Shown: positions 13,140 through 43,600 of the stretch, in pieces
Layout of the letters: each line of letters opens with the position of its first letter
How positions within the stretch are numbered: position 1 is the stretch's first letter
Virus record (IMG/VR): IMGVR_UViG_3300048088_000314
Coordinates: 1-64,000 of that record
Reading direction: 5' to 3' (one strand)
Length of the DNA: 64,000 nt
Source of the DNA: a virus
Program-made: the position numbers and the translations under genes
The notes under the pieces: generated by a model
Seen by the model: the letters and a program-made list of their open reading frames with translations, nothing else
Databases searched by the model: none
Told to the model about the DNA's origin: nothing

Positions 13140-13142
13140 TCA

Positions 13143-13573: not shown

Positions 13574-13603
13574 AACGTCGATCGCCAACAAGGGAGATCG
13601 ACA

Positions 13604-15241: not shown

Positions 15242-15426
15242 CGCCTGCCGAACTCAGCGAGGCGGGTCGCAAGCTCTACGGCAAATGGGGCTGGCAAACT
15301 CGCCTCGCCGAGGCGCTGAAGGTAGATGGGAGCACGGTGCGGCGCTGGGTCTCAGGCGCCGTGCCGATCCCCGGGCCGGTCGAGGCGGCCGTCAACTGCT
15401 TCCTCGAGAGACGAGAGACACGCTAG
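15238..15426 (+). CDS. Cro/XRE-like HTH protein
   Basis: QTRLAEALKVDGSTVRRW; ATGA-coupled to Ro60. Confidence 0.8.
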   Translation: MTPAELSEAGRKLYGKWGWQTRLAEALKVDGSTVRRWVSGAVPIPGPVEAAVNCFLERRETR

Positions 15427-15498
15427 CCTCCTCCGGTGGATCCGGGCGCTGGTCTACGAAGCCGGCAGGCGAGGGTTCGATTCCTTCAGGGGGCGCCA
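15426..15498 (+). tRNA. tRNA-Arg(ACG)
   Basis: CT-ACG-AA loop, T arm, CCA. Confidence 0.85.
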
Positions 15499-15503
15499 TT
15501 TCA

Positions 15504-15579
15504 GGGCCTATAGCTCAATGGACAGAGCGGCCGGCTTCTACCCGGCAGGTTCGGGGTTCGACTCCTCGTAGGCTCGCCA
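15504..15579 (+). tRNA. tRNA-Arg(TCT)
   Basis: Canonical cloverleaf, CCA. Confidence 0.9.
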
Positions 15580-15582
15580 ATT

Positions 15583-15658
15583 CTCCCCGTAGCTCATTGG
15601 AGAGAGCGCTCGGCTCCGGACCGGGAGGTAGTAGGTTCGATTCCTATCGGGGAGGCCA
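15583..15658 (+). tRNA. tRNA-Arg(CCG)
   Basis: Canonical cloverleaf, CCA. Confidence 0.9.
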
Positions 15659-15717
15659 GACCCTTAACATTTTTCGGCGGAATCGACGGGACTCTTTACG
15701 GGGCTGAACCATGTCAA

Positions 15718-15801
15718 GCGAGGCTGGCGGAATAGCAGACGCGGTCGGCTCAAACCCGGCTGCCTTCGGGCATGGGGGTGCAAGTCCCTCGCCTCGCACC
15801 A
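15718..15801 (+). tRNA. tRNA-Leu(CAA)
   Basis: Long variable arm, CT-CAA-AC loop, CCA. Confidence 0.85.
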
Positions 15802-15805
15802 ACAC

Positions 15806-15882
15806 GGGTCGGTAACCCTAGAGGCATCGGGAGCAGCCTTTTAAGCTGACCTACGTGAGTTCGACTCTCACCCGACCCACCA
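15806..15882 (+). tRNA. tRNA-Lys(TTT)
   Basis: CT-TTT-AA loop, T arm, CCA. Confidence 0.85.
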
Positions 15883-15893
15883 ACCTGTAGTAT

Positions 15894-15968
15894 GCCCGCG
15901 TAGCTCAGCGGCAGAGCAGCGTCCTCGTAAGGCGTTGGTCGAGGGTTCGAGTCCCTCCGTGGGCACCA
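15894..15968 (+). tRNA. tRNA-Thr(CGT)
   Basis: Canonical cloverleaf, CCA. Confidence 0.9.
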
Positions 15969-18206: not shown

Positions 18207-19502
18207 ATGGCCGCAACCACAAGTGGGACGTATTCATTTTCGCCAAGCGTGGCGGAGTGCCTGCTCGAGGCGTTTGAGCGCATCCAGATATTCCCGCCGT
18301 CGCTGACGTCGACCCACATCATCTCGGGCCGGCGCTCGGCAAATCTGTTGCTGTCGGATTGGTCGGGGAACCACGGCGTCAATTTGTTTGCGGTCGACCA
18401 GATCGCGATCCCGCTCGTCCCCGGGAAGGCGCAGTACGACCTTCCGATCATCACGATGCAATTGCTCGATGTGTATCTGCGGCAGTACGTGCCGAACACA
18501 GGCGCGGCGATCAACCTCGGCCACACGCTTACGCCAGTGGGCCCGCCCGGCAATCCCCTCGTGGCTCAGCCGGAAGGCGATCCGCTTATCATCCAGCCCG
18601 CCTCGAACACGTTGTCGTCGGTCGCCGGCAGTGCGGACATTACGCTCAGATGGCCGAGCCACGGTCTTTCCCCGGGAGAACCGATATTCTGGGGATGCCC
18701 GGTCACGGTTGGCGGCCTGACGTTGTCGAGCTTCAGCATCGTCGACACCGTTATCGATATCGACCATGTCCAGTTCCTGGCGGGGTCTCCCGCGGTTGTC
18801 ACGCAGACCAATCAGGGCGGCACGCCGCTGTTCTCGACGAATGCCGGATCGCCCAACGTCGACGTGATCCTGCCAGGCCACGGCTTATCGGTGGGCGACT
18901 CCTGGCCGGTCTCGATCGCCATCAACATCGGCGGCTTCACGATCGCCGCGAACACCAGCGAGACCGTGACCGCGGTGGCGTCGTCCTACCAATTCAGCTT
19001 CCAGCCCGGCGGCAATGCGTCGTCGACCCAGTCGATCTTCCAGAATGGGGGGCAGATCAACGTCACGTCGCAGGCTACGACCTCGGGCCAGCCCGAGCCG
19101 CAGGACATCCTGATGTTCCCCCTCAGCCGCAACGATTACGCGGCGATCCCGCAGAAGTTCGTCGCAGGGCGCCCGACGAGCTACTGGTTCAATCGCATCA
19201 AGTCCCCAAACTTCAGCATCTATCCGCTGGTGCAGCAGGGCTTCTTCTACGGCTTCGTCGCCTACCGGCTACGCCAGATCCAGGACGCCAACCCGACTCT
19301 GGGGCAGATCCCGGACATGCCCAACCGCTTCTGGGAGCCCTTCATCGCCGGGCTCTCCGCCAAGGTGGCCGAGAAATTCCGCCCAGAGGTCCACGCGACC
19401 AAGCTCGGGCTCGCCTCGGCCGCATGGGAACAGGCCGCCTACGCGGACGTTGAGCATGCTACAATGAACGTCAAGCCCAATTTCGCGGGCTATTTCAGGT
19501 AG
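18207..19502 (+). CDS. head-tail adaptor / tail tubular-type protein with beta-rich insertion
   Basis: TSGTYSF..EAFERI..RRSANLLLSDW N-terminus; SRNDYAAIP..GRPTSYWFNR C-terminus. Confidence 0.65.
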   Translation: MAATTSGTYSFSPSVAECLLEAFERIQIFPPSLTSTHIISGRRSANLLLSDWSGNHGVNLFAVDQIAIPLVPGKAQYDLPIITMQLLDVYLRQYVPNTGAAINLGHTLTPVGPPGNPLVAQPEGDPLIIQPASNTLSSVAGSADITLRWPSHGLSPGEPIFWGCPVTVGGLTLSSFSIVDTVIDIDHVQFLAGSPAVVTQTNQGGTPLFSTNAGSPNVDVILPGHGLSVGDSWPVSIAINIGGFTIAANTSETVTAVASSYQFSFQPGGNASSTQSIFQNGGQINVTSQATTSGQPEPQDILMFPLSRNDYAAIPQKFVAGRPTSYWFNRIKSPNFSIYPLVQQGFFYGFVAYRLRQIQDANPTLGQIPDMPNRFWEPFIAGLSAKVAEKFRPEVHATKLGLASAAWEQAAYADVEHATMNVKPNFAGYFR

Positions 19503-19523
19503 AACATGGGAAAGGCGTGAGCG

Positions 19524-19856
19524 ATGGCCCCGCCGCATAATAAGTTCGCTCCGGTTAACATTAGGTCGCCTGAGCCCGCAGGGATTTGCCAAAGGTGCGG
19601 ATTTTTGTACCATCTTTCCGATCTATCGTGGCAATACCAGTGGGCAGGTCCGAGCCTTGTCAACTTTAGACTGTTGGTCTGTTACCGCACGTGTCTCGAC
19701 GTCCCGAACGAGCAATTGAGGACGATTATTATCGGGCCGGATCCAGTGCCTCCCAAGTTCCCGTCGCCGACCTTTTACGCCCAGCAGAATCAGGGCGGGG
19801 TTCCGGGGCCGGGGACTTTCCCGCCGCTGCCTGACGATCCGCCGCCTGGACCCTGA
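19524..19856 (+). CDS. small Zn-finger-like phage tail-module protein
   Basis: CQRCGF..LLVCYRTCLD. Confidence 0.65.
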   Translation: MAPPHNKFAPVNIRSPEPAGICQRCGFLYHLSDLSWQYQWAGPSLVNFRLLVCYRTCLDVPNEQLRTIIIGPDPVPPKFPSPTFYAQQNQGGVPGPGTFPPLPDDPPPGP

Positions 19857-26998: not shown

Positions 26999-27222
26999 TG
27001 GACACCGCTGTTTGCGCCCTCTTTGCGAAGTCCTGGCCGAGCGAGGAACGGGGAGTTCCGATCACCGTGGACATTCAAGGTGTCGACGGAGTCTGGCGCA
27101 CCGAGCGGATGGTGGCTCCGGGATTCAGCACCAGCCAAGGCATTCGGTTCAGGATCCGCGACTTGGCCGCGCAGCCTGACCTGGGACTGCCGGGCGTGCG
27201 CGTTCACGAAGCGAGGCGATGA
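26995..27222 (+). CDS. hypothetical protein
   Basis: Overlap-coupled ORF. Confidence 0.5.
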   Translation: MMDTAVCALFAKSWPSEERGVPITVDIQGVDGVWRTERMVAPGFSTSQGIRFRIRDLAAQPDLGLPGVRVHEARR

Positions 27223-28112
27223 TGCCCCTCCTCCCCGGTAAGGAAAATATCTCCCGAAACATCTCCGAGCTCACCCACCACGGGAGCCGCGAAAGGAGTC
27301 ACCGGCAAATCGTCGCCATCGCGCTCGCAAACGCCGATCGGCATCCGCACAAGGCCGGCGGAGGCGGGATCGGCTTCGCCGGCGGCGGGTTTGCGAAGCC
27401 GCCCGCCTTCCACCTGATGCCCCCGGTGCACGCCCTGGCGCCGGTGCCGAAGCCGGAATCGCCAAGCATGGGCACGCCGTCCTGGACGCGCTCGACGATG
27501 CGGATGGACAGCCCAGCCCACATGCGGTTCGCCCGGGGCGGGATCGGCGAGTACGTGGAGTTCGGTGGCCACGAGCACATGGCGGGCGGCGGCGATGATG
27601 GCGCGGTTGCCGGGCCGGTGATCCCAGATGAGGCGATGCACAGCGGGCTAATCGGCGGCGTCGGCGGCGGCCGTACCGATCGCACTCCGCTTTCAGTCCC
27701 CAGTGGTGCGCATGTTGTGCCGGCTGACGCGGTATCCGGACTTGGCCAGGGGGCAAGTCACAACGGAGCGGCGCTGTGGGCTGCGGCGATCCGTGGTGGC
27801 CCCTGGGGCGTTCCGGTTCCGGCGACACACGGCGGCCATGGCCCGCCCTCGGCGCCGCATGCAGCCGCCCAACAGACCCAGACGATGGCGGAGGGTGGCG
27901 AGGCGCGCACATCGATCCTTGCGGCAAGCGGCGAGGTCGTCGTGGCACCCGAGGATGTCGAAGCTATCGGAGAGAGGGCGATCCGCGATGGCAGAGCAAA
28001 ACGTGGCGAGAGTGCTGCGGATGTGGGCCATCGACTGATCGACGAAGCCATTGATCGCGTTCGAAAATTCAACATTTCGTGGCTTCGCGCCGCGCCGCCT
28101 CCAAAAAAATAG
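27219..28112 (+). CDS. putative internal virion protein with xxxGG motifs
   Basis: ISRNISEL..QIVAIAL N-terminus; GGRTD..HVVPADAVSGLGQG; FAGGG, FARGG, MAEGG. Confidence 0.7.
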   Translation: MMPLLPGKENISRNISELTHHGSRERSHRQIVAIALANADRHPHKAGGGGIGFAGGGFAKPPAFHLMPPVHALAPVPKPESPSMGTPSWTRSTMRMDSPAHMRFARGGIGEYVEFGGHEHMAGGGDDGAVAGPVIPDEAMHSGLIGGVGGGRTDRTPLSVPSGAHVVPADAVSGLGQGASHNGAALWAAAIRGGPWGVPVPATHGGHGPPSAPHAAAQQTQTMAEGGEARTSILAASGEVVVAPEDVEAIGERAIRDGRAKRGESAADVGHRLIDEAIDRVRKFNISWLRAAPPPKK

Positions 28113-28158
28113 AGACAATTCGCGCGACGATCGGGTACGGTCGCCGCCGTCACGGAAA

Positions 28159-28935
28159 GGCGGTCACGGTTCGGCTCGGTGGGGCGGGCTATGGCACGGT
28201 ATGCCTCGGTCCGGCCTGGCGGTCATGGCTGGGTTGTCAGGGGCCTGGCGAGCAGGGGCCGGGTGTGTTCTGGCGGTAGCGGCTAGGACCGGCATGGCCT
28301 GTCGAGGCGTGTCCTGTTGAGGCTTGGCGGTTGGGGCCTGGTCTGGTCTGGAACGATGAGCCGTGGCGAGGCTTGTTAGATCGGTCGTGGAACGGCGAGG
28401 TTGGCCGGCTCCGGATTGGTTAGTCGAGGCGGTAGCGGCAGGGCGCATTGCGGGAAGCCGAGGCTGGGCCGGTCAGGGTACGGCTGGGCGGGGCGTGTTA
28501 CGGCCCGGCGGTCGCGGAAAGCCGAGATTGGCAAGGCCGGGCAAGCCGGGGCGGTCATGGCAGGGACGGGGTCGGATCGGTTTGGCTGGGCAACGCGGTC
28601 ATGGCAAGGACCGGCCACGTCTGTCTTGGTCGGGCCAGGCATGGTGCGGCGGTCACGGTTAGCCCCGCATTGGCCAGTCCAGGCGGGGCAAGGCGGTCGT
28701 GGAGTGGCCAGGAGCGGCCAGCCCAGACTGGGTAAGGCCCGGCGAGGCGGTCTAGGTCCGGTTAGGCTTGGCTCGGTCGGGCGCGGCTCGGCGGGGCGGT
28801 CGGGGCGAGGCACGGCCCGGCGCGGTTAGGCTTGGCGGTTGCGGCTTGGGTTGGCGTGTTGAGGCGGGGCAACGCTCGGCATGTCGGTCGAGAAAAGGCG
28901 CGGCTAGGCGGGGCGTGGCACGGTATGCCGGTTGC
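28159..28935 (+). ncRNA. pentamer-periodic GG(Y)NN array 1 (about 16 units delimited by GGCGGT-N-NN); putative guide-RNA array
   Basis: Delimiters at 28159, 28218, 28272, 28326, 28380, 28428, 28468, 28507, 28550, 28594, 28648, 28692, 28746, 28795, 28834, 28883, each followed by 6-10 pentamers. Confidence 0.8.
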
Positions 28936-28938
28936 GTC

Positions 28939-28968
28939 TTGACGTGGTCGCCGCCGCCGCCGTAACCT
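28939..28968 (+). promoter_or_regulatory. sigma70-like promoter (TTGACG-18bp-TAACCT) for the RAMP-like gene
   Basis: Directly after array 1, upstream of 29093. Confidence 0.5.
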
Positions 28969-29092
28969 AATTTCGTTACTCGCGGCGGTCACCGCGTGGA
29001 CGCAACATCAGAGAGCTTCCCGCCTCGGTGTTGCTTTGCAACCCCTGAACCATGCGTCCCGGGCGTGACCGGCCGGGGCGGGGAGACCACTT

Positions 29093-29965
29093 GTGAAATC
29101 GAAGAAAACTGAAGCAGTAGAAGTCGAACTTCTTGAAATCCGGCAAGCGTCGGCTGTGTTCTGTATCGTCGGAGTTTCTCCGTTGATTTACAACGCGGTG
29201 AGCCAGAAGGCCCAGCGCGAATTGTTGATGCCATCGGGCCGAAAGAACGCCGCGGCGCGGGCAAGCTCCCTGAAGCACGACCCGATCACTGAATATCAAA
29301 ACTCGATCTACCGCGCCCACGAGGATGATGCGCCGACGCGGATGGTTTTCCCGGCAGTGGCCTTCAAGAAGGCGCTGGCTACTGCTGCCCTGGACATCCC
29401 AGGGGCGACGAAAGCGGCGGTGGGCCGGCTCTCCTGGGTCACCGGCGACAAGACGCCGATCTACGGTGTCCCGCAAATTCTCCTGAGTGTCGTGAGGTCG
29501 GCCGATATGAACCGGACGCCGGACATTCGAACGCGGGCGATCCTGCCGCGGTGGGCCTGCGCGATCCGGATCAATTTCGTCCAACCCCAGTTGTCGGAGC
29601 GCAATGTCGTGCATCTGCTCGCGGCGGCCGGGGTCCTGTGCGGGATCGGCGATTTTCGTCAGGAGAAGGGCGCGGGGTCTTACGGTCAGTTCCGCATTGC
29701 GGATGGGCCTGACGATCCCGAGTTCGTCGAGATCGTCCAGAGCGGCGGTCGCGAGGCGCAGGATGCGGCGCTCGCAAACCCCGAGACCTACGACAACGAG
29801 ACGGCGTCACTGTACGCCTGGGTCACCGAGGAGATCGCCAAGCGCCGCGAGGCTGGCGTGGAGGCGTCGCGCCACGCTCCGGAAGGCGAGGACGACGTCC
29901 CCCAGGTCGGGACGTTGCTGAAGCCGCGTCGCGGGCGCAAGGCCAACGGCGAGGCGCACGCCTAA
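29093..29965 (+). CDS. Cas7/RAMP-superfamily-like RNA-binding protein (stand-alone, phage-encoded)
   Basis: N-terminal strand IVGVSPLI, FPAVAFKKAL helix motif, C-terminal glycine-rich loop GIGDFRQEKGAGSYGQF. Confidence 0.75.
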   Translation: MKSKKTEAVEVELLEIRQASAVFCIVGVSPLIYNAVSQKAQRELLMPSGRKNAAARASSLKHDPITEYQNSIYRAHEDDAPTRMVFPAVAFKKALATAALDIPGATKAAVGRLSWVTGDKTPIYGVPQILLSVVRSADMNRTPDIRTRAILPRWACAIRINFVQPQLSERNVVHLLAAAGVLCGIGDFRQEKGAGSYGQFRIADGPDDPEFVEIVQSGGREAQDAALANPETYDNETASLYAWVTEEIAKRREAGVEASRHAPEGEDDVPQVGTLLKPRRGRKANGEAHA

Positions 29966-29975
29966 CGCAACAGGG

Positions 29976-30005
29976 AAGGGGCGCGGCTGCGGTCGCGCTC
30001 CCTTT
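29976..30005 (+). terminator. terminator/attenuator-like hairpin between RAMP gene and partner
   Basis: GGGGCGCGGC-TGCG-GTCGCGCTCC followed by CTTT. Confidence 0.5.
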
Positions 30006-30022
30006 CTGACAAGGAGGAACAG

Positions 30023-30496
30023 ATGTTCATCAGCGACGAAGTCAAAAATTCGGTTTTGGCCCTGGCCGATCGCAACGGTGGCATTGTCCAGCCCGAGCAA
30101 CTGGTCGAGGCAGCGGCCGATCCGAGCCATCCTGCGAATGGCTGCTTCGAATGGGACGATGCGAAAGCCGCTGCTCGCGACCGGCTCACGACCGCGCGCA
30201 TCATTATCCGGAGCATTCGGCTGGTGGTCGACGTGGTCGAATTGACGGGACCGAGGCGGGTGCCGGCGTTCGCGGTCAATCAGAGCGGCAGCGGATATGC
30301 CACGTTGGATTCCCTCCGCAGCGATCCCGATGCGGCGCGGGCGGCGGCCGTTTACGAGTTCCAGCGCGCGGCGGCGGCACTGCGTCGAGCTCGGCAGATC
30401 GGGGTGGAACTGGGTCTGGGGCCGGCAGTCGACGCCACGGTGGCGCGGCTGGTCGGCGATGTCGAATCAGCGACGCAGGTTTACGCTGCGCGCTGA
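30023..30496 (+). CDS. small alpha-helical partner of the RAMP-like protein
   Basis: AAGGAGG RBS; PEQLVEAA.DP.HP...FEWDD.KAA...R...AR.II motif. Confidence 0.75.
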   Translation: MFISDEVKNSVLALADRNGGIVQPEQLVEAAADPSHPANGCFEWDDAKAAARDRLTTARIIIRSIRLVVDVVELTGPRRVPAFAVNQSGSGYATLDSLRSDPDAARAAAVYEFQRAAAALRRARQIGVELGLGPAVDATVARLVGDVESATQVYAAR

Positions 30497-30502
30497 CGTC
30501 AA

Positions 30503-30974
30503 GGAATGGAACGGCGGTTCGGGCTAGGATCGTCTAGGACAGGTCTGGTCAGATTCGGCTTGGCGGTCGCGGATGGACAGGGTAAGGCCAGCCTTGGCTC
30601 GATGTGTCACGGTAGGGCGGGGTAAGGCGGTCGGGGCGAGGCACGGCCCGGCGCGGGTAGGCTTGGCCGGGCGGTCGGGGCGGGGTCTGGGCAGGTGTGG
30701 CTAGGCTTGGCGGTCGAGGCGGTGCGTGGAGTGGCTGGGCGCGTAAGGCAACCTCCGGCGGTCGAGGCTTGGATGCCGTGGCGTGGTGAGCTCGGGCGGT
30801 CGAGGAATGGCCGGGGGTGGCATGGCGTGGTGAGGTTGGGCGGTCCGGGCTAGGCGGTCAAGGCTAGGTGCGGCCCGGTGAGCATGGGCGTGGCCGGGCG
30901 GTCATGGCTGGGTGCGGCCGGGCAACACATGGTGGGGCGGGGCCGGACAAGGCATGGCGGTCGCGGATTGGCCG
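30503..30974 (+). ncRNA. pentamer-periodic GG(Y)NN array 2 (about 10 units); putative guide-RNA array
   Basis: Delimiters at 30513, 30562, 30626, 30670, 30709, 30757, 30795, 30839, 30853, 30897, 30956. Confidence 0.8.
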
Positions 30975-31020
30975 TCATGCTTTCTCCCACGTGGAGAGGG
31001 ACGGTAATGTTGTGACGGAG

Positions 31021-31590
31021 ATGCCAAAAACCGTGCGTCTGGCGGAGCCTCCGGACGAGGCGCAGTTGTTCTCCCTGCTGATCGACATGCACCGCTACAA
31101 CGGCGGCGGCTGGGGCATTCCCTACAATCTTGCGCTTGTGCGCGACCATGTCGAGGCGGGGACGCGCCGGATCATGCGAACGGACGCGCAGGGGATACAG
31201 CGGCCCGATACGCGATTCCGGAGCAATCCCAACAATGAGGCGGTCGCATCGATCGGGGTGATCGGTCCCCTGGGTGGCCATCTCGAAGCGTCGATCGGCC
31301 TCTTCGTCGAGCCTGTCGCTTGGTTCAGCGACGTGCCGGGCTTCTCCGAAAAATGGCTTTTCGTGCGTCCGGAGGCGCGCGATCGGCGTCATCTCGAGGA
31401 CGATCTCTTCCATTTTGCCCGGTGGGCCAGATCGTTCATGGACGCGGGCGCCCAGCCGTTTCCCTTTCGGTTGTTGACTGGGTTTGTTTACGATGGGGCT
31501 GATCCGCGGCGCCGTGCGGCGATGGACCGGCTGTGGACTCGGAAGAGCGGGGGGCGTCGGATTGGCTCTCTTTTTATGACCGACCGATGA
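31021..31590 (+). CDS. GNAT-fold acetyltransferase-like protein
   Basis: GGAG RBS; VRLAEPPD..WFSD..EKWLFVRPEAR; position before ejection genes. Confidence 0.6.
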   Translation: MPKTVRLAEPPDEAQLFSLLIDMHRYNGGGWGIPYNLALVRDHVEAGTRRIMRTDAQGIQRPDTRFRSNPNNEAVASIGVIGPLGGHLEASIGLFVEPVAWFSDVPGFSEKWLFVRPEARDRRHLEDDLFHFARWARSFMDAGAQPFPFRLLTGFVYDGADPRRRAAMDRLWTRKSGGRRIGSLFMTDR

Positions 31591-31867: not shown

Positions 31868-34800
31868 ATGAGCTCCCAAGGCGCAACAACCACGACGTCG
31901 AGCGCACCGCCTCCGCAGGTGATGCAGAACTACACCCAGTTGACGGGTGCTGCCACCGGGGTCGCGCAACAGCCGCTCAATCTTTACACGGCGCCCGTCG
32001 TTGCGGGCTTTACACCGCAGCAGCAGCAGGCGTTCCAGGATGTTCAGAACGCCTCGGGTATCCAGACGCCCTACATCAACGCTGCGGCGCAGGAGTACGC
32101 GACCGCGACGACGCCGCTGTGGCCGACGCTGCCGACCTTCGGGACCGGGTCGGTCAACACGTACCTGAACCCGTACACGACCGACGTCACCAACCAGCTT
32201 ACGAACCTCTACGACCAGCAGAATGCCCAGGCTGCGGCGCAGCTTGCCGGGCAGTCGACGACGGCGGGCGCTTACGGTGGCGACCGCGAGGCGGTGGCGC
32301 AGGGGATTCAAACCCAGCAAGAGCAGATGGCGCAGGCGCCGACGCTCGCGCAGGTCCAGCAGCAGGGCTACCAGCAGGCGGTCAATGAGTTCAACAACCA
32401 GCAGGCGACGCAGCTTGCCGCCGAGCAGGCCAATTCATGGCTGGCGTCGCAAGCGGGCTTTGGCCTGGCGGGGCTGGGCTCTCAGGCCCAGAGCGCCGCG
32501 CTGCAGGGTGCCAGTGCCGAGATGCAGGCAGGGGCGGCTCAGCAGGCTCTGGCCCAGCAGCAGTTGAATGTCCCCTACCAGCAGTACCAGCAAACCCAGG
32601 CCTACCCATACCAGCAGCTTTCGTTCCTGACGCCGATCGTCGAGGGGACGGGATCGCTATCGGGCGGCACGGGGAGCACGACGCAGCCGCCGCCGAGCAT
32701 GCTGGGGCAGGTAGCCGGCGCCGCGACCGCTGGGGCCGGCCTTATCAACGCCTTCCCCTCCTCGCCGTCCTATCCTCCGGTGGACTATGCCACCAATCCG
32801 ACTGGCGGATTTGCCCGCGGTGGCCGCCTCGGCTTTGCCGATGGCGGCGGGATCGGTAGTGGCGGGCTCAATCTTCCGGGCAGCCCTAGCGGGGGGATCG
32901 GCACCCTCAACTTCCCGGACCTCAGCATCTCGTTCATCCCCCCTCCCCCGACGTCAGCGGGCGGCAAGTCGATGTTCAACCCAACGCAGCCCGATGTCAC
33001 GACCACCACGAGCGGCGGCGGGGGCGGGATTCTCGGTGCCGTTGGGCCGCTGCTCACCATCGCGAAATTCGTCGTTCCCCTCATCGGTGCGAAGGACGGG
33101 GGAGCTATGCGCGAGCATCGTGCGGCCGGCGGAACGGGTGGGATTGGCGACTATACGTCCCTGGCGACGCCAGCGCTCCCCGTGCCGACGCTTGAGCTTC
33201 CCTGGCTGAAGATGATGCAGCATCAGCAAGGTTCCCACATGGGGGCGGGCCCACCGAAGGCTCCCACGCCGGGAGCGGCACCCGACCCGATGAAGGGGGT
33301 CCAGGATCTCGGCGGCGCGGTCGGCAGTCTCGGAAAGCTGTTCAATAGCGACAGCACCGGCGGAGATTATGGTGGCGGGGGCGACAGCACTACCACGGGG
33401 AAGTCAGGCGGTGGCGCGATCGGTCGGGCCCATTACCAGACAGGGGGGCCGGGGCCGACCAGCGTTCCGACCTCGGTGATGGCGCAGTTCGGCGGAGCGC
33501 CGCCGAACGTCCAGAGCCAGTTGCAGCAGCTTCTCCAGTTGCCTCTGGCGCAGTTGCAGGAAATGGCGGTGCAGTATCCGCCGACGACCTCTCAGGGCCA
33601 GATGATCGCCCAGGCTATCGCGCAGAAGCAGGCGACGCCGGGATCCGGGACGGCGCCCCAGACACCCGCGCCGCAGCAGCCGTTTGTTGGCCTTGGTGGT
33701 TCGGGTGGATCGACTGGGGGCACGGCATCTCTGGCGACCTCGCCGGAGAGCTATGGCGGGACTTCGCATTTGGCCAGCGGTGGGCAAGCCGAAGCGGCCG
33801 ACACCCGCGGTTACGTGACGCCCGAGGAGCTCGATCCGCGGCCGGTGGTCGATCACTCCGGAAGCACGGTCAAGGTCAATTACCCCTCGGAAGGGAAGTC
33901 GCTCGATTTGGGATTGCCACCGATCAGGCCAGAGCGCCGCGCTGCGGGGGGATCCGCCGGCGCGGCCATGCCGGTGGTGCCGCATGTCAGCCTTTCTGGT
34001 GGCGAATGGGCTCCCGTGCCGACGTCTGATGCGTCGGCGCCAGCACATTTGCCGATCACTGGGCCAGCGAACAATGCACCGCTCGGGGGGACGCAACAAG
34101 CAGGGGAGAACAACACGTCTCCGGCCGCGTTTTTTACGAGCAGCATGCCGACCGCTAACGGTGTTGCCATCCCGCAATTGTCGAATCAGATGTTCGGGCC
34201 GGTCCAGGGTGTTACGCCGGGATCAGGCCTGCCGGGCTGGTACGCGCCGCTACCGCAGCAGACCGTGTTTGGCACGGGCCCTGGCGGCTCGACCATCTTC
34301 CCGACGTCAACCGCCTTCACCCCGGCCATGGCGCCGATCACGTCAGTCTATGGTGGTTCCGTCCCGACCTGGGCAGGTGGTTCGAGCGCTCCTGCGCCGG
34401 CGACTGGCGGGACGATGACCCAGGATCAGATCGACCAGATGAATGCCGCCACCACTGCGGCGAACTACGCGCAGGCGGCATCCGGCTACAAGCGCGGCGG
34501 TCGTTTTGGGGAGGGCGGCGGCATCGGCGGCTCACGCCCTTTCCGCGGACATTTCGATGAGGGCGGCGATCTAAATCCTGGCGATGAACTGCCAATCCCG
34601 AGCGCGCCCGTCGACGCCGGCTATGTAGATGCCGGGGTTGCCGGCTCGGGTGCCGGGCCTGGCACTCTGGATCTTCTGCAAGAGCGCGAGGCGGAGGATC
34701 GGGTGAGGGCGGACCGTGCCCTGGCGAAGATTACCGCGTCGGCAGAAGGTAAGGGCGGCATCGGCAAGAGTGTTACGGGGCATCCGATGCTGATGCGAGA

Positions 34801-37672
34801 GCCATCCGCGCCATTGGCGCCGGCGCCGGTTTTCCCGGATACGGGCGGCTCAGGCACCATGGATATCCTGCAGGCGCATCAGGCTGTCTCAGATGCGCTC
34901 GACCAGGCGGGGCCTCGGAAACACGCTGTCGAGGCACCCGGGATCCCGCCGACTATTCCACCGGCGGTCAGTCCGGATACGGCGATAATGCTGCAGGCGC
35001 ACGACGACGAAGGCAACGCGATCGACACCACGCCCGAACCGACTCCGCGCGGAGTCGAACCGCCGACACCAGAACTGCGCGCAACCCCAACCTCACCGCG
35101 TAATGAACAGGTATCGCAGGCGACCCAGGACGTTCTCCGGGAGCACGGCGAGATGCCGAGCGAGCCGTTCTATGGACGCGCCATCCCGTTCAGCCAGTTG
35201 CCCGAGCGCGGCGGTGGACCGCCAGTCCAGTACGGCATGCCGAGCGAAGGGCGCGGCGGAATTGGCATGCCGAGCGAGGCTGCCGTTCCGGTCACTCCTA
35301 CGGGAATCAAGGGCGGAATCGGCACCGACTATGTCGAGCCGCCACCGCCGGATTGGACCCAGCCGGAGTATTGGACCCGGCAGCGCTACGAGCAGTGGAA
35401 CCCGGCGACTCAGCCGGTGCCGTCCGCGCCCGCCGCTCCAACGCCGATGCCGCAGAGGCCTGTCGTCGCTACAGAAGGCCCGATGCCGCAGAGACAGGTC
35501 ACCCCGCCTGCTACCGCAGAAGCGCCGGCAGCAGCGCCCGAAGCGCCAGCGGTCACGACGCCGACGACGGTATCGGCGGCGACCAAGCCAGACCTGTTCG
35601 CGCCAGCGCCGACAACGGCGGCTGCGCCAGCGACGGCTCCCGCCGCAGCGCCGGAGGTCTGGGGCGACTCACTTGGAGTCGGCGTCCACAACGTCCTCAA
35701 GAGCCCAGGCGGCTACCAGCATGGCGGCGACGATCCAAAGACGGTTTTCGGCGAGATCAGGAAGCAGCCAGAAAACCATTGGCAGGGCAAGGACGTGATC
35801 CTGTCGAGCGGCACCAACGGCAACGACATGCCGACCGTCCTCGAGACGATGAATTATCTCAAGGGACACGGCGCCAACGTCGCGGTCATTGGCTATGGTT
35901 CGAAGTACGCCGACAGGGACGCGCAGCTTCAGCAGTACGCCAAGGATGCCGGCGTTGCCTATGTCAAGGCGGGAGTCAATGACGGCACCCACATGAGCCC
36001 GGGTGGCTATGCGGACGCCACGGCGCGGGCCCAGCAGGCGCTCGCGACTTCTCGGGCTCCGAGAGCCATGGCTGATGGCGATGTCTATGCGTCCGATCCC
36101 AAGTCGCCGAACTCTGGCGCGGTCATCCCGAGCACCCCGACGCCAGCCGCGCCGGATGCGCGCAAATCTGCCGCGCAAACGAACGCGAAAACCGCTATCG
36201 ACACAATGGCGGGGCTCGGCGGCAGCAAGGTATTCCAGGCCGCAGGCCTTACCCATGCCATGTACGAGGGCGGGTTCGCTGACAATTGGGTGTTGAGCGG
36301 TATCCCCGGCGAGGACAGTCGCGGTCATTTGCAATTCAACGCGAACGGGCAGCGTCCGCTTTACGAGCGATGGCTGGCGGCTAACGGGAAACCTGTGGAT
36401 TCGCACAGCACGGCTGATCAGTTCGCCTACATGACCCAGTGGGTGAAGACGCATCATCCGGAGGCGTTGACGACCAATGATCCGCGGGTGGCGATGGATG
36501 CCATCGGCGATTTCGAGCACTATACGGGATACGCGCCGGGCCAGGGCCAGCGGATGGGGAATTACCCAATCGCGGAGAAGATGGTCAACGGCGATCTCAG
36601 CGTGACCCCGAGCGGGCCGATCGGCGGCACCCGCGGTGGTGGAGGCGCCGGTGGTGGCGCCGCGGGCGCAGGAACGGGGGCGAACCCCAACGCCCCTCCC
36701 GCAACGCCGGAGAACGTCAGCAACGCCGCCCGGCAACTCTCCGCCCAGGCTCCGCCGCACGAGCGCAACGCCCTTTACACGTGGCTGCACAGCCCCGGCG
36801 GGATGCTGTTTATGATCGGCGCCGGCATGCTCGCCTCCGGATCGCCGTACCCCGGCGTCGCGCTGGGCCAGGGTCTCGAGTTCGCGGCCAAGGGGCTGAT
36901 GACGGGCGAGGCCCAGGAGAACAAGAACGAGCTCGCCGAGATCCGCGCCGAGCACTACCGCGAGATGGCGGATGCAGCCGCGGGTAAGCTGGGCCTGACC
37001 CAGCAACTCGGCGAGGGCCGGCTGGCGAACCAGCAGACGCAACTCCAGTTGACCGCTGAGCGTCTGGCCAATTCGCAGCAGGTCGCGCAGAACAACATCC
37101 TCATCGCGACCCAGAAACTCGACTTGGCCAAGAGCGCGGAGGAGCGTCGACTGGCCGAGGGACAGCGCCGCGATGCGATCAAGATGATGATCGGCCTCCA
37201 GCCGAAGGGTGAGATGGCGATCCTCCAGGCAGTGATGGATCAGCCGAATGGACCCAAGACGATCCCCGAGGCTGAGGCGGCGATTGCCGCGGCGAAGCGT
37301 GATCCTTCCAAGGCACAGGGGGTCCAGGTCGCGATCGAGGCCGAGGCGCGCAAGCGAGCCTCCCTCGATCTGCAGGCGCACAATGCCGACCCGACCAACA
37401 TCGGGCGCACCTTCGATACCCAGGCCGCGACCAAGCAGCACCTGGACGAGCTCCGGGCGACATTGGGGGCGACTGCGGCGCCCGCGGCACCCGCTCCGGC
37501 CGCTCCCGCTGCAGCGCCGCAAGGGGCGCCCGCAGCGCAAGGTGCAAAGCCCGATTGGGCAGTCCCCGTCCTGGGCGATCAGCATTACCTGGATGGCAAG
37601 CCGATATTCACTGACGGAAGGGCGTGGTATTTCGGCGATCACACGCCGGCGGGAGCCGCCGCAACCCAGTAA
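31868..37672 (+). CDS. large internal virion/ejection protein with SGNH-hydrolase and lysozyme-like domains
   Basis: Q-rich N-terminus with GAYGGDR; WGDSL/GTN/DGTH; AAGL..YEGG..GHLQF..DQFAYM. Confidence 0.75.
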   Translation: MSSQGATTTTSSAPPPQVMQNYTQLTGAATGVAQQPLNLYTAPVVAGFTPQQQQAFQDVQNASGIQTPYINAAAQEYATATTPLWPTLPTFGTGSVNTYLNPYTTDVTNQLTNLYDQQNAQAAAQLAGQSTTAGAYGGDREAVAQGIQTQQEQMAQAPTLAQVQQQGYQQAVNEFNNQQATQLAAEQANSWLASQAGFGLAGLGSQAQSAALQGASAEMQAGAAQQALAQQQLNVPYQQYQQTQAYPYQQLSFLTPIVEGTGSLSGGTGSTTQPPPSMLGQVAGAATAGAGLINAFPSSPSYPPVDYATNPTGGFARGGRLGFADGGGIGSGGLNLPGSPSGGIGTLNFPDLSISFIPPPPTSAGGKSMFNPTQPDVTTTTSGGGGGILGAVGPLLTIAKFVVPLIGAKDGGAMREHRAAGGTGGIGDYTSLATPALPVPTLELPWLKMMQHQQGSHMGAGPPKAPTPGAAPDPMKGVQDLGGAVGSLGKLFNSDSTGGDYGGGGDSTTTGKSGGGAIGRAHYQTGGPGPTSVPTSVMAQFGGAPPNVQSQLQQLLQLPLAQLQEMAVQYPPTTSQGQMIAQAIAQKQATPGSGTAPQTPAPQQPFVGLGGSGGSTGGTASLATSPESYGGTSHLASGGQAEAADTRGYVTPEELDPRPVVDHSGSTVKVNYPSEGKSLDLGLPPIRPERRAAGGSAGAAMPVVPHVSLSGGEWAPVPTSDASAPAHLPITGPANNAPLGGTQQAGENNTSPAAFFTSSMPTANGVAIPQLSNQMFGPVQGVTPGSGLPGWYAPLPQQTVFGTGPGGSTIFPTSTAFTPAMAPITSVYGGSVPTWAGGSSAPAPATGGTMTQDQIDQMNAATTAANYAQAASGYKRGGRFGEGGGIGGSRPFRGHFDEGGDLNPGDELPIPSAPVDAGYVDAGVAGSGAGPGTLDLLQEREAEDRVRADRALAKITASAEGKGGIGKSVTGHPMLMREPSAPLAPAPVFPDTGGSGTMDILQAHQAVSDALDQAGPRKHAVEAPGIPPTIPPAVSPDTAIMLQAHDDEGNAIDTTPEPTPRGVEPPTPELRATPTSPRNEQVSQATQDVLREHGEMPSEPFYGRAIPFSQLPERGGGPPVQYGMPSEGRGGIGMPSEAAVPVTPTGIKGGIGTDYVEPPPPDWTQPEYWTRQRYEQWNPATQPVPSAPAAPTPMPQRPVVATEGPMPQRQVTPPATAEAPAAAPEAPAVTTPTTVSAATKPDLFAPAPTTAAAPATAPAAAPEVWGDSLGVGVHNVLKSPGGYQHGGDDPKTVFGEIRKQPENHWQGKDVILSSGTNGNDMPTVLETMNYLKGHGANVAVIGYGSKYADRDAQLQQYAKDAGVAYVKAGVNDGTHMSPGGYADATARAQQALATSRAPRAMADGDVYASDPKSPNSGAVIPSTPTPAAPDARKSAAQTNAKTAIDTMAGLGGSKVFQAAGLTHAMYEGGFADNWVLSGIPGEDSRGHLQFNANGQRPLYERWLAANGKPVDSHSTADQFAYMTQWVKTHHPEALTTNDPRVAMDAIGDFEHYTGYAPGQGQRMGNYPIAEKMVNGDLSVTPSGPIGGTRGGGGAGGGAAGAGTGANPNAPPATPENVSNAARQLSAQAPPHERNALYTWLHSPGGMLFMIGAGMLASGSPYPGVALGQGLEFAAKGLMTGEAQENKNELAEIRAEHYREMADAAAGKLGLTQQLGEGRLANQQTQLQLTAERLANSQQVAQNNILIATQKLDLAKSAEERRLAEGQRRDAIKMMIGLQPKGEMAILQAVMDQPNGPKTIPEAEAAIAAAKRDPSKAQGVQVAIEAEARKRASLDLQAHNADPTNIGRTFDTQAATKQHLDELRATLGATAAPAAPAPAAPAAAPQGAPAAQGAKPDWAVPVLGDQHYLDGKPIFTDGRAWYFGDHTPAGAAATQ

Positions 37673-37686: not shown

Positions 37687-40600
37687 ATGCTGCGTGACGG
37701 AGGCAGACCGGGGTTTGCGGAAGGTGGCGACTCTGGCGACCAAGTCATCCCGTCTGACTTGCCGCCTCCGCCGCCCGGCGCGACCACAGAGCCGCCGCAG
37801 GAACTGCCGCCGCTTCCAGCCGGCGCGACGCTTACGCCGCCTCCGCCGCCACCAGGCGCGACGACCACGCCGCCGTCACTCTTTGCCAAAGATAAACCCC
37901 TGGTTCCCAAAACCCAGGACGACATCAGAACCTCGGCGCCGGGATCTTGGATCAAGGATCCTCTAACGGGGGCGCTTTATCAAAAGCCTGTTCCTGCGCC
38001 TGCCGAAAAAGCGCCAGCACCAAAGCTGGATTTCCGCGGTCTTACCCCCGAGCCAACGCCAAGTGTCATGGGCGCGGCGGGGCGCGGTTTTGAGCGGGGT
38101 GTTGGCCCCGCCGCTGGTGGATTCGTCGGTGCTGGCGCACTCGGAGAGGCGGGTGCCATTGGAGGCGCAGCCGTTGCCGGACCTCCCGGCGCTTTGGTTG
38201 GTGGCATAGCTGGGGCGCTTACGGGCGCTCTGGGTGGCGGCTACGCTGTTGGCGCCGCCCAGAATTGGTTACTCAAACAATTGCCGGACAGCGTTCAGCG
38301 ATGGCTCGGGCAAAGCGATGAGCAGCAGGCGGCTGATGTCGAGGCACATGGTATCCCGGCAGAATTGGGCGAGTTTCTCCCAAACTTGATCGCCGCGCCA
38401 CCACGTCTCGCTGCCGCGGCCATTCGTGAAGGGGCCGGAGCAGTCGAGCGATTGCTGACGAGTCGATTTGGTGCGCCAGTGACGGGTGCCGCGATCATGG
38501 GCGGCCAAAGTGTGGCACAACAGGAACTCGCGAAAGGCGAAATCAGTCCAAAGGAAACAGCGATTGCGGCAGGCGAAGGCCTGTTGATGGGGCACCCGAG
38601 CCCGATTGGTGAGCGACTTCTGAGTGCGGGCGCGAGGCCGGTTCGAGCAATCACCGGGAGAGGAGAGCCGACACCGGGCGGAGAGGGCGGTGGTGCCGGT
38701 CAGGAAGGTGGCGCACCGCCTCCCGCTCTCGGCGAGGTCATGGGCATCCCCATGGGCGACAACAACGTGCAGCGCATGACGGTTTCCCGGGTCACCCCGG
38801 AAGGCGATGTGGTGCTTGTCGACCAAGCGGGGCTGGCTCATCCTATGACGGCGGCGGATGTAGCCCGCCTGCGCACCGAGCCACCTCCCGAGGAAGCCGC
38901 GCCGAGTGCCGAGACGCCACCGCCCCCAGGGACGCCGCCAGCAGGCGAAGCGCCCCCCCCCGAAGGTGAGACTCGCCCGCCGCCAGCGGGTGCCGCGGGC
39001 GTAACGCCCAGCTTCGACATCTTCCCACCGGACGAACTGCCGCCAGCACCGCCGGGGGCGACAAGAGAACCCCCGCCCGCTGAACCGCCGCCGGCAGCCG
39101 CGCCAGCCGCTCAAGTAGCCGCCGCAGATCAGGCCGCTGCTGCGGAGCGCGCAGCGACCGCCGCACAGGCACCGGCGCAGCCCGGCGAACTCGACCAGCG
39201 CATCGCCGCGGATCAGGCCGACGTTGCCGCGGCGCAGGCCGGCGCTGCGGAGCCGGCACCTGCTGCTGCTCCAGCCGCAGCCCCGGCGCTACCGGACGGC
39301 TATCGGATCGAGCCCTTCGAGGGCGCCACCGTTACCGGCAACCCGGTAACGCGCTACCGCTTGATCGGGCCGTCTGGGAACATGATGGCCGAGGGCGGCA
39401 ATCTCACGGAATTGGCCGCTCATGCCCGGCGGGTAGCGGCGATCCGCGCCGCGCCGACTCCGCGCGGAGTCGAGCCGGCTCCCGAGCAAGCGCCACCCGC
39501 TCCCGAGCCAGCGGCGGCACCAGAAGCCCGCCCAGCGCAGGAAGCGCCGCCGCCCCCTGTTGCGGCACCCGAGCCGGTTGAGGCCGCTCCCGCGCCCCCA
39601 GAGCCGGCCGCCGCTACACCGGAAGCGGAGAATGGCGGCTACAAAGTTGTATCCCGGAATAATGGCATTCGAGAGTTCTGGTGGATACAGCGACCGGATG
39701 GTTCGCTTGTCGGGCCAGGAAGATCAGGAACGGCAGTCGAGACCCGCGAAGAAGCCGAATGGGCTCTGCCCTACTATGTTGAGGCTGGCAAGTTGATTGC
39801 TGCCAAGACTTCGCCGCCAGAGCCTGTCGCGCCAGCCGCCGCCGAGCCAGCCAACACGCCAGTCGTCACCCAGGAGAAGCACACCAAGACCGGCGCTGAC
39901 CTGTGGTTCGTCCGCTTCCCCGAGAAGACGACGGGGCTGGGGCCGCTGGCGCGCTCGCTCAAGGGGTATTGGTCGGCCTTCCGCGGCGGCGGCATGCAGC
40001 CGGGCTGGGCCTTCAAGAGCCTTGAAGCTGCCAACGAGTTCGCTACCCGGGCACGGTTGCCTGGCGAAAAGCCGACGCCAATCCCGGAGGGCGCAGCACC
40101 ACCGGCGGTAGAGACGACGCCAGAGTCATCGCCGGCTCAGCCCGAAGCCGCGACACCGCCGGCCGCTCTGGCCTATGTTTCGACGCTACGTGATCCCGCG
40201 CGGCGCGAGTACGCGACGCAATACCTCCGGTATCTCCTGGGACGCCGCGACGAACCGGATACCGATCTCTCGCCGATGGCGCAGCAGGGCATCAGGCTGC
40301 GTCTCGATGAGTTGGCTGGAAGCCGCGCCGGGCCGGCAGGTGAGCCGATGCCGCCGAGCGGCGAGCGCCCCGCTGCGCCGCCATCACCGTTCGACGCTTG
40401 GGCCGACGAGGTTTTCAAGGTTTACCAAGAGCAGGGGTCGGAAGCCGCAAACACCCTCTTTGATACGATCGCCACGCGCGAGAATCTGTCGGTGGAGCAA
40501 TGGTCCCAGATTTCTCAGCAGGTGCGCGACCGCGTCGAGGCGGCCAGCCTCCCGTGGGGAAAGGGAGTGAATTACGTCCCGCCAGAGCGGCCTGTTGAAA

Positions 40601-43600
40601 CGCCGGCCGGTCCACGGCCTGTCGAGGATGCAGCGGCTACGGAGCGCCGCAACTTCGTAGACGCTCTGAATTTGACGAACAGCGTCGAAAGAAACGGTGC
40701 CCGCTACTCGATTGAGAACCAGGATGGACGATTCCGCGGGGTCGTCGGCGGAGAGGGGCTAACCCCGGCATACATCGGGGAGTGGACTCCGAACCGAGGC
40801 AGCGCAATACAGGCGGCGCGAGATTATGCTTTCAGGGCAGAAACGCCGGAGCCACCGCGCGCCGAACCTATCGCCGAGACGCGCGCAGAGGCGGAACGTG
40901 CAGAGCCAGCCCCGCGGGAAGAGCCGGCCGCGCCGCGCGCCGAGGCCAAGCCTGCCGTTACGCCCGCCGCCGGCACCCCCATGTGGGCGCACATCGGAAA
41001 GAATTATCTCGACCGCGACCTCTACCGCGACAAGAACGGCGTGCGGTCCTACGTCGATGACAACGGTATCCGCCACACCGAGCCGGTCCAGATCATCCCG
41101 ACCCGTGGCGGCATGCGCTACAGCACCGCGGAGCCGCTCAACAAGGATCCGGAGTGGCAGGTCGCCCAGCCGCGCGACGCTTACGAGGACGAGCACGGCC
41201 TCCCGATCGAGAAGGAATACTACCGGAAGGAGCCGGAGAACCTGGAACAGAGGATCGCGCGGCAGCTTGAGAACGCCCGCGAGGTCACCGAAGCCAACCC
41301 GACAAGAGCAGAGATCGAGGCCGGCAACTACCCGAAGGGCCGGGTCAACTTCTACGGTATTCCCTTCGTCATGGAGAACGCACGCGGTGCGCTGCGTGAA
41401 GGTATCGACGAACATGGCGAGCCATGGGAATCCCAATTGGCTGCCGATTATGGCTACATCTCGCGCACCGTTGGGGCGGAGGGCACCGATAACGTCGATG
41501 CGTTCATCGGCCCTGACCTGGGGAGCCAACAGGCCTTTGTGATCGACCAGTTCGACCCGGACGACGGGTTTGACGAACACAAGGTGATGCTCGGCTACAA
41601 GGACTGGCCGGCGGCGCGCGACGCCTATCTCGATTCGTTCTCCGATGGCCGCGGTGGCGAACGCCTCGGCAACTACACGCCGATGTCGCTCGACCAACTC
41701 AAGGCATGGCTGGACACCGGCGACACCCGCAACCCGATCGGCCAACAGGCCTTGCCGCTTGGACGAGAGGAGCCGACCCGTGGAGTTCAAAACGCCGTAC
41801 CTCCTGGCGATGAGGGAGAGAGACCCGCAACTGTTCAACGCCCTGCGGAGGAACGGGGAAATGAACCGGCACCTGCAGCAGAAGAGCGAGCAGGCGCACC
41901 AACTCCTCGAGGAGATCTTGAAGCACGATCCGAAGCCATCCTTGCCGAAGATGAGGGAGGCGGAGGAGATCGTGCTGGCGACGCTGATCGAGTTCCCGGC
42001 GGACAACGAGAGGGAGCCGAGCCAGGAGCCGCCGCAGGACCTGCCGACACATCCGGGGCAATTCGGCCGCCGACGCGGGAGATAGACCTCGAGCCGGGCA
42101 AGGAGGTTGGCGTTCCGTCTCAGGCGGGGCGCGTGGTGGATTGGGAGGTCAAGGGCACCAACTTCCCGCTGACCGCCGAGGCTATCTCCGAGAACCGCTC
42201 ACCGCTTGCCAAGGCGCGCGACAACCTTGCCGCGATCGAACTGGCGAAGCGCCTCGTCGCCGAGAAACGCCCGGCGACCCGCGCAGAACAGGCGCTGCTC
42301 GCCCGCTATGTCGGCTGGGGTGGAGTCTCCGGTGCGTTCAAGGACAGGGCTGGCAATTTCCGCAAAGGGTTCGAGGATGTTGGCCAGCGCTTAGCGCAGG
42401 TGCTGACCAAGCCGGAATACGACGCCGCGGCGCAGTCAACGCTGTATGCCCACTACACTAGCGAGCCAGTCATTAAGGCCATGTGGTCGGCGATGCAGCG
42501 TATGGGGTTCAAGGGCGGGAGCGTGTTCGAGCCGGGCATGGGCATCGGCCACTTCCTCGGGTTCATGCCGCCCGACATAGCGCAGACGTCACGGTATCAC
42601 GGGCTCGAGATCGACCCGATGACCGCGACGATCGCCAAGCTGCTCTACCCGGAGTCGGGCATTAGGCAAGCTGACTTCAAGAGCACGCCCTATCCCGAGA
42701 ATGTGTTTGATATCGCGATCGGCAATCCGCCGTTCCACGATGTCGTCGTCCAGAGCGACCCCAAGTATCGTGCGCGCGGCTTTGTGCTGCACGACTACTT
42801 CTTTGCCAAGAGCCTCGACAGCGTGCGCCCCGGTGGGTTGCTGGGCTTCATCACCAGCGCCGGCACGATGAACAAGCTCGACACCAAGGCGCGGAAATAT
42901 CTCGCCGACCGGGCGGAGTTCGTCGGCGGGGTGCGCATGCCGTCGTCGACTTTCGCGCGCTCAGCCAATACCGAAGTCACCACCGACATCTTGTTCTTCA
43001 AGAAGCGGGGGCAGATCCTCGACCATGCCGAGAACGAGTTGCCCGAATGGACCCAGACGGTGCAGCGCGACCTGCCGAACCGCGCCGGCGAGATTATGGG
43101 GGCGAACGTCAATCGCTATTTCAGCGAGCATCCCGAACAGGTCCTCGGTGAAGAGGGGATGTTCGACAAGCTGGTTGCCGGCGAGCGCTATGCGGTGCGA
43201 CCGACCCCGGGGATGGACGTTCCTGCCGCGCTGAATGAGGCATTGGCGCGGCTCCCTGAGAACATAATGACCGAGGCCCCGTCGCCGAAGGAACTCGCCG
43301 AACTCGATTTCTCCCGCGACGAGCGTAAGGACGGCAGCTTCTACGAAGCGCCGGACGGCACGCTGATGCAGTATCGCGACGGCGCTGGCCGCCCGGTGGC
43401 ACGGCGCGGCGCCGGTGTCGAGGGTGGCCGGACCTCCGCTGAGATGAAACTGATCCGGGAGCTTGTCCCGATCCGTGACGCGATGCGGGCGGTCTATCGT
43501 GCCGATCTGGGGGGCGGCGAGGAAGCCATCGCCGCGCGCACCGAGTTTAACCGGGTCTACGACGAGTTCGTTTCCCGCCGCGGCCCGCTCAACAAGACCG

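Follow-up and report, generated by a model that had tools for sequence, protein, structure and literature searches.

The locus studied here raises the question of what two arrays with a period of five nucleotides (nt) are doing on either side of two small genes in a phage genome. The locus lies in the IMG/VR virus record IMGVR_UViG_3300048088_000314, of which we analysed positions 1 to 64,000 (in the following, the window). An earlier note on this DNA had read it as a candidate RNA-guided system and had tentatively put forward for it the name VIPR (Viral Interference Programmable Repeat). VIPR is described in a 2026 preprint (10.64898/2026.04.26.720920) and in others on cryo-electron microscopy (cryo-EM; 10.64898/2026.04.26.720927), satellite conflict (10.64898/2026.10.15.759431) and a language-model survey (10.64898/2026.10.21.760802). 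The proposed name holds, with the protein encoded here being homologous to Vipr of Escherichia phage SUSP1, and these preprints remove the novelty that the note had assumed.

VIPR denotes RNA-guided DNA binding with a discontinuous code and is proposed to predate CRISPR. Its systems comprise Vipr (a minimal RAMP protein), in most cases a single vap accessory gene and flanking non-coding RNAs of 9-16 YNNGG repeats, and are mainly viral or proviral; the NN pairs of the repeats read double-stranded DNA such that every third target base is skipped, which results in transcriptional repression (10.64898/2026.04.26.720920). The same preprint covers 667 loci; VIPR types I-VII and accessory families vap1-6 are distinguished. 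The locus in the window is very probably a VIPR system of a soil phage that acts as described for SUSP1. As far as sequences can tell, every testable hallmark of VIPR is present: homology to SUSP1 Vipr, the modelled RAMP fold, the residues contacting the GGY bases, the array anatomy and the vipr-vap-array synteny are observed at the locus itself, while ribonucleoprotein formation, the skip rule and repression would carry over by analogy with the SUSP1 work.

The protein encoded by vipr (Table 1) has 290 amino acids (aa) and no match in Pfam, NCBIfam or PADLOC. It is matched by PHROG 4652 (function unlabelled; E 1e-13) and belongs to a family with more than 2,598 relatives in a 90%-clustered set (1,864 representatives at 50% identity), without a single named member. 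It is organized into an RRM core, a thumb hairpin (strands 128-135 and 143-151, with R148), a G-loop (G184-G198, with D187, F188 and R189) and a conserved, clade-specific C-terminal helical extension (~205-260, ~85 residues). Every Foldseek and VIA match of its AlphaFold2 model (predicted local distance difference test, pLDDT, 91.9) is a CRISPR RAMP, i.e., the modelled protein has a RAMP fold.

To relate the family to known proteins, we used a profile (A1) of 70 family members. Compared with the PDB, it yields one informative match, namely 36pp_D ‘SUSP1 Vipr protein’ (E 1.5e-7). The hhalign comparison with SUSP1 Vipr (YP_009199429.1 in reference genome NC_028808.2, identified as vipr by 10.64898/2026.10.15.759431) reaches a probability of 96.9% (E 1.8e-10) in 53 columns that cover the thumb base, the next strand and helix, and the G-loop. 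This is the segment that matters for guide binding: according to cryo-EM, the GGY bases are held in SUSP1 Vipr by R138, D177, W178, R179 and C173 as well as H17 and K33, and silencing is abolished by R138A and D177A (10.64898/2026.04.26.720927). In the hhalign alignment, thumb residue R138 corresponds to R148 here, C173 of the Y-pocket to C183, and D177 and R179 of the G-loop to D187 and R189. R148 and R189 do not vary among the 70 relatives and D187 hardly does, and all invariant family residues are present in the protein studied. The stand-alone Cas7/RAMP protein seen by the earlier note is thus borne out both by the fold comparison and by the homology to SUSP1 Vipr.

A Class 1 CRISPR-Cas effector was considered as well and ruled out, since there is no repeat-spacer array and the neighbours of the locus are phage structural genes. 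That is, no CRISPR-like repeat-spacer array was found in the window and PADLOC had no match for the three locus proteins, in line with what the note had stated about CRISPR arrays and cas genes. The Class 1 backbone proteins (Csm3, Cmr4, Cas7, gRAMP/Cas7-11) share 7-16% sequence identity with Vipr, and repeats, spacers, Cas5, Cas6, Cas10, Cas3, Cas1 and Cas2 are all absent here. Furthermore, Class 1 systems have a period of 6 nt, whereas the present one is phage-encoded and has a period of 5 nt with a discontinuous guide (two bases out of five).

The 5-nt period was assessed by the self-identity of the arrays at different lags. For lags 5, 10 and 15, values of 0.39-0.46 are observed in both arrays (0.44-0.46 for lags 5 and 10), compared to ~0.21-0.34 for most other lags; the flanking and intervening genes, unlike the arrays, show a lag-3 periodicity. 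In a sliding scan, the two arrays are the sole stretches above the periodicity threshold, both in the window and in the entire contig of 90,804 bp. An open reading frame (ORF) cannot account for this period, and an Rfam scan of 27900-31300 returned no family match. We parsed the arrays into pentamers by dynamic programming with register slips permitted, which gives ~17 units upstream (28164-28926) and ~11 units downstream (30518-30960) with 5-14 pentamers each; the unit terminus is GGCGG followed by T in 17/25 units. Among the 221 pooled pentamers, position 1 is G in 207 (94%), position 2 is G in 172 (78%) and position 3 is C or T in 193 (87%), while positions 4 and 5 are near uniform with 16/16 dinucleotides represented. 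The definition of a VIPR guide RNA (vrRNA), i.e., at least four tandem YNNGG/GGYNN repeats beside vipr with conserved GGY and hypervariable NN, applies to ~28 units, all on the strand of vipr. The earlier note had thus located the two non-coding arrays correctly, as lag identities and the whole-contig scan confirm; its near-constant GGY and free NN are reflected in the pentamer composition, and the ORFs of 290 and 157 aa between the arrays are both present with ribosome-binding sites. Its figures of ~16 and ~10 units with mostly 6-11 pentamers are replaced by those of the parse.

Next to the locus itself, we studied its relatives. In IMG/VR, 323 stretches encode a Vipr relative, of which 80 were examined; together with three cultured phages, this makes 83 loci. 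A 5-nt-periodic region is found beside the gene in 76/80 IMG/VR loci, with GGY invariably on the gene’s strand (GGYNNGGY counts of, e.g., 89 vs. 3 and 118 vs. 4 for the gene’s vs. the other strand), and the four array-less loci have short flanks downstream of the gene. A tblastn search of a phage collection identified 28 cultured actinophage records (25 Mycobacterium, 3 Gordonia) with a Vipr homologue of 28-32% identity, and an array is present in all three that were opened (Gordonia phages Pipp and ODay, Mycobacterium phage Saal). In ODay, the VIPR locus is situated between the tail chaperones and the tape measure gene, in Pipp and Saal by the immunity region; the annotated coding sequence of Pipp gene 43, which overlies the array, is probably a false gene call. 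Since a vap homologue lies immediately 3' of vipr in 70/83 loci, the conserved unit is vipr-vap-array. A second array upstream is frequent and also present here. The locus is therewith part of a large soil-phage/actinophage clade with staggered arrays (see below) and its own Vap family.

These statistics bear on whether the arrays could be G-rich microsatellite or G-quadruplex DNA, or a recombination hotspot, with the RAMP gene being an incidental neighbour. The arrays are repetitive and G-rich, assemblies break or mis-join inside them and no listed RNA run contains the locus, all of which would suit such DNA. However, three pentamer positions are fixed and two are free, unlike in microsatellites, and Vipr is homologous to a protein shown to bind exactly such RNA. 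Moreover, a same-strand array accompanies vipr in 79/83 independent loci at protein identities of 28-72%, which also answers positively the note’s proposed check for homologues beside 5-nt-periodic arrays. We therefore give an incidental neighbourhood practically no credence.

If the locus acts as a VIPR system, both arrays would be transcribed from the + strand into vrRNAs, on which one Vipr protomer would sit per pentamer. The thumb arginine and the Asp-aromatic-Arg of the G-loop would sequester GGY and leave the NN dinucleotides exposed, which would read double-stranded DNA as ‘two paired, one skipped’ (NNx). Once bound, the filament would block transcription in competing mobile elements, and the Vap-like protein would assist. 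The note had already suggested that one subunit grips each GGY, that the NN serve as guide and that the output may be binding or silencing; this mechanism is the one demonstrated experimentally for SUSP1.

The best reference is SUSP1 (type II; PDB 36pp), which shares with the present phage the homologous Vipr with its thumb Arg and G-loop GDxR, a two-gene operon flanked on either side by GGYNN arrays in the gene’s orientation, and a ~91-kb genome with neither cas genes nor a CRISPR array. The differences are as follows. SUSP1 Vipr has 195 aa, compared to 290 aa here with the extra C-terminal helical domain, and sequence similarity is detectable in the thumb/G-loop segment only. SUSP1 has 4 guides instead of ~28, and its Vap1 is unrelated to the accessory protein found here. 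Finally, each SUSP1 guide is followed by a structured AT-rich pseudoknot tail (~40-60 nt), whereas the units here are tail-less and separated by a 4-nt register slip. Because the units lack a structured 3' tail, the locus is not of type II.

The slips were located with a run-finder, which on SUSP1 as a positive control recovers the repeats and their AT-rich tails. In the present arrays, each in-phase run shares exactly 1 nt with the next (gaps of -1), i.e., the units abut and have no tails. In the upstream array, units are separated by the 4-nt short repeat GGCG followed by GTCNN, with successive runs sharing 1 nt. Across the 83 loci, 580/700 boundaries (83%) are 4-nt slips, which come in two flavours (GGCGG then TCNN; GGCA(A/G) then GGCA). 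Since units of related loci contain GTC in place of GGY as an internal variant, both flavours follow from a single rule: runs of full pentamers are separated by a short repeat GGCR of 4 nt. For the same reason, the 9-nt delimiter GGCGGT-N-NN proposed by the note is better read as GGCG plus an ordinary pentamer GTCNN. The legend of fig. S18 in the VIPR preprint mentions ‘staggered’ vrRNA arrays whose positions overlap by 1 nt, the end of one marking the start of the next (10.64898/2026.04.26.720920). Judged by this legend, the locus fits the staggered architecture, the likeness being the exact 1-nt overlap here and the 4-nt slips at 83% of the clade’s boundaries. We infer that the register of 5 nt would be lost at each GGCR short repeat, which would thereby end one filament and start the next.

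Some units are near-duplicates of each other, either between the arrays (28795-28838 and 30626-30669; parsed units 28800 and 30631) or within the downstream array (30626-30669 and 30670-30713; 30771-30801 and 30815-30845). They differ mainly at NN positions, which suggests that new guides may arise by unit duplication followed by divergence through point changes. The inter-array duplicate has led to an assembly mis-join (30625/28795) in one public run. A comparison of four DNA sequencing runs yielded identical fragments only, apart from this repeat-induced joint, such that there is no natural variation to analyse. The spacer between upstream array and vipr folds strongly: for 28925-29060, the energy is -60.8 kcal/mol (z -4.55) and none of 200 shuffles folds equally well. 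A role as cap, terminator or processing element is conceivable for this spacer. At the hairpin that ends the downstream array, a consensus terminator scan made no call.

We then asked what the guides might target. All guides were scanned with the published NNx rule, tolerating mismatches and using shuffled guides as controls, against the contig itself, all 83 VIPR loci, 18 loci that contain the neighbouring gene and the genomes of five related phages. For 20 of the ~21 testable guides, no match above the shuffled controls was found in any of these four sets, and controls that skip 0, 2 or 3 bases are equally flat. In the opposite direction, 137 guide units of other loci showed no targeting of the present phage above chance.

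The remaining guide, starting at 28164, nearly matches a site in the phage’s own ORF 27219-28112, which lies directly 5' of the upstream array and codes for a 297-aa protein of an unnamed family. Here, 19/22 bases agree and the skipped bases coincide with codon position 3. A score of 19/22 anywhere in the contig is reached by 0/1000 shuffles of the NN order and by 2/1000 guides with random NN. A single-sequence IMG/VR search with the 297-aa protein found nothing; its 72 relatives, mostly on phage-sized contigs (~90 kb), share the C-terminal motif ILAASGExVxPPEDV. If the skipped bases are taken as the wobble positions of codons, the guide translates to [S/R]-G-[D/E]-[I/M]-V-[I/M]-P-P-[D/E]-[D/E]-V. 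At the protein level, one of the 72 homologues (P0293) has SGEMVIPPEDV, agreeing with 11/11 decoded residue classes, and another (P0306) has GGEMVIPPEDV. A metagenome scan with the guide identified six contigs, five of them with the match in unrelated proteins with a similar motif. The sixth (L102) encodes a homologue of the 297-aa protein (tblastn E 5e-9) and agrees in 21/22 bases at the homologous site. For vrRNAs aimed at rival phages, a better match to relatives than to the phage itself has been reported (10.64898/2026.10.15.759431). Taken together, the comparison is suggestive of a guide aimed at rival phages’ versions of gene 27219-28112, where the three mismatches would spare the phage’s own copy. 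We consider it suggestive and not established, given that substitutions of V by I and of A by P are common and that unrelated bacterial proteins contain the motif as well; in addition, the guide itself was the query that led to L102, and P0293 and P0306 were compared as protein instead of DNA.

Other candidate targets were dropped. Exact NNx matches of guide 28594 in IMG/VR (8) are all in phages of 29-47% GC, do not extend and are thus chance hits, and exact scans of IMG/VR gave no match for guide 28751 or for the full length of guide 28164. Among genome contigs, guide 28164 has three matches, which are in unrelated proteins sharing the motif G-D/E-I/M-V-I-P-P-D/E-D/E-V. Marginal matches in the related genome G002 (17/20 and 16/20) lie outside any recognisable homologue.

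The many guides without target (20/21) could indicate a decayed or orphaned VIPR locus, i.e., recognisable genes and arrays in an inactive system whose guides have drifted. In the same direction point degenerate pentamers within several units (e.g., GCTAT, TCAGG and CGTCT) as well as short or fragmentary units (28375, 30743-30771 and 30844). Internal degeneracy is, however, frequent in working vrRNAs (10.64898/2026.04.26.720920), both ORFs are intact with good ribosome-binding sites, and the invariant residues of the family are all kept. Missing targets are to be expected because databases of soil-phage targets are very sparse. Decay is hence a most improbable account of the locus.

The accessory gene directly follows vipr. 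Its product combines a small N-terminal domain of helices and a beta-hairpin with a C-terminal helical hairpin and is matched by PHROG 15946 (function unlabelled; E 7e-15), while no match was found in Pfam, PDB, NCBIfam or PADLOC. Its neighbours in the ESM Atlas are viral only and unnamed. Because PHROG 4652 and PHROG 15946 match the locus proteins, these phage families would be the Vipr and Vap of the clade; this sequence-based link to VIPR is made in the present analysis.

For such an accessory protein, one can imagine a VIPR-related system with an output other than the silencing known from SUSP1, e.g., Vap recruiting a host nuclease or helicase, or a complex targeting RNA. VIPR types III-V do have nucleases or helicases (10.64898/2026.04.26.720920), Vap has neither detectable similarity to SUSP1 Vap1 nor a known fold match, and the conserved C-terminal extension is absent from SUSP1 Vipr. 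On the other hand, neither Vipr and Vap nor the flanking ORFs tested have a detectable domain of a nuclease or helicase, and the pentamer code and GGY-binding residues are as in SUSP1. The single candidate target lies in coding sequence and in wobble phase, as do the targets of DNA-targeting VIPRs (10.64898/2026.04.26.720920). A different output thus appears unlikely, and SUSP1-type silencing remains our preferred reading.

Several observations weigh against it nevertheless. A candidate target was found for only 1 of the ~21 testable guides, and the evidence for it is partly circular in that the guide itself served as query in the scan that yielded the best DNA match. For the Vap-like protein, neither sequence nor profile comparisons show a similarity to SUSP1 Vap1, and no fold match of its model (pLDDT 85) was informative; the C-terminal helical hairpin alone was aligned, and generically. 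In Vipr, W178 of the SUSP1 G-loop is replaced by F188 in the hhalign alignment (the aromatic character is retained), and H17 and K33 lie outside the alignable segment. No sigma-70-like promoter was found on the + strand, and no RNA sequencing runs are listed for the locus.

Table 1. Coordinates of the locus features (positions of the window unless stated otherwise).
Feature	Position	Strand	Remarks
Near-match site of guide 28164	27927..27958	-	inside ORF 27219-28112; peptide SGEVVVAPEDV
Upstream vrRNA array	28145..28940	+	~17 abutting guide units of 5-14 GGYNN pentamers; from periodicity, parse and composition
Guide unit 28164	28164..28222	+	first full unit; 11 NN: AC TC TC GG GG AT AC AT TC CC CT
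Folding spacer, upstream array to vipr	28942..29040	+	long GC hairpin and second hairpin
vipr	29093..29965	+	290 aa, GTG start, GGGGAG 8 nt upstream; minimal RAMP
vap-like accessory gene	30023..30496	+	157 aa, AAGGAGG upstream; directly 3' of vipr
Downstream vrRNA array	30495..30965	+	~11 guide units, architecture as upstream array; from periodicity, parse and composition
Hairpin then UUUCU, end of downstream array	30951..30987	+	possible terminator; fold z -2.06, weak
Gordonia phage Pipp, MN234179.1 (L081)	3563-3790 of L081		staggered GGYNN array; Vipr is gp42 ‘hypothetical protein’
Gordonia phage ODay, MW534375.1 (L082)	3633-3790 of L082		staggered GGYNN array; Vipr is gp19 ‘hypothetical protein’
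Mycobacterium phage Saal, NC_023580.1 (L083)	2590-2850 of L083		staggered GGYNN array; Vipr is gp51 ‘hypothetical protein’

The record as a whole (90,804 bp, 64% GC) is from soil and rhizosphere metagenomes and encodes a head protein, an ejection-like protein and a block of 30 tRNAs, with the VIPR locus being situated within the virion module next to phage structural genes. Directly 3' of the locus, a giant ORF on the + strand (31868-37672; 1,934 aa) has an N-terminus that matches PHROG 4287, a DNA ejection protein, and is followed by a second one of 4,611 aa (37687-51522, + strand). The 30 tRNA genes are on the + strand at 9022-15968. They include a tRNA with CUA anticodon (13446-13519; tRNA-Pyl according to ARAGORN), a possible amber suppressor, and the region also holds a 545-aa protein of PHROG 850 ‘RNA-binding protein’ (13604-15241). 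Among the related phages, the complete genome G003 (IMGVR_UViG_3300037258_000279; 93,664 bp) has the 297-aa gene and a distant Vipr only (18959-19573; 31% identity, E 1.3e-9), and the complete relative G001 (91,268 bp) has no Vipr. VIPR is therefore both gained and lost inside this phage group.

Since both VIPR and its staggered variant are already described, the locus is categorically nothing new. It is a clean and large example of the least-described array architecture, with ~28 guides in two tail-less arrays, and it ties the unnamed families PHROG 4652 and PHROG 15946 to Vipr and its Vap-like partner. We can further imagine, albeit with more doubt than confidence, that three things hold jointly: GGCR would delimit the guides of this clade by loss of register in place of a structured tail or ribozyme, a protein ruler would set both array reading and guide length, and guide 28164 would hit the rival allele of a virion-module gene of sister phages while sparing its own. 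The last point provides one concrete candidate for self-sparing targeting of a rival phage’s gene. If true, guide delimiting by a protein ruler would be a biogenesis route without prior demonstration. As members of the clade are found in cultured phages of Mycobacterium smegmatis and Gordonia terrae, direct tests of both biogenesis and targets are possible.

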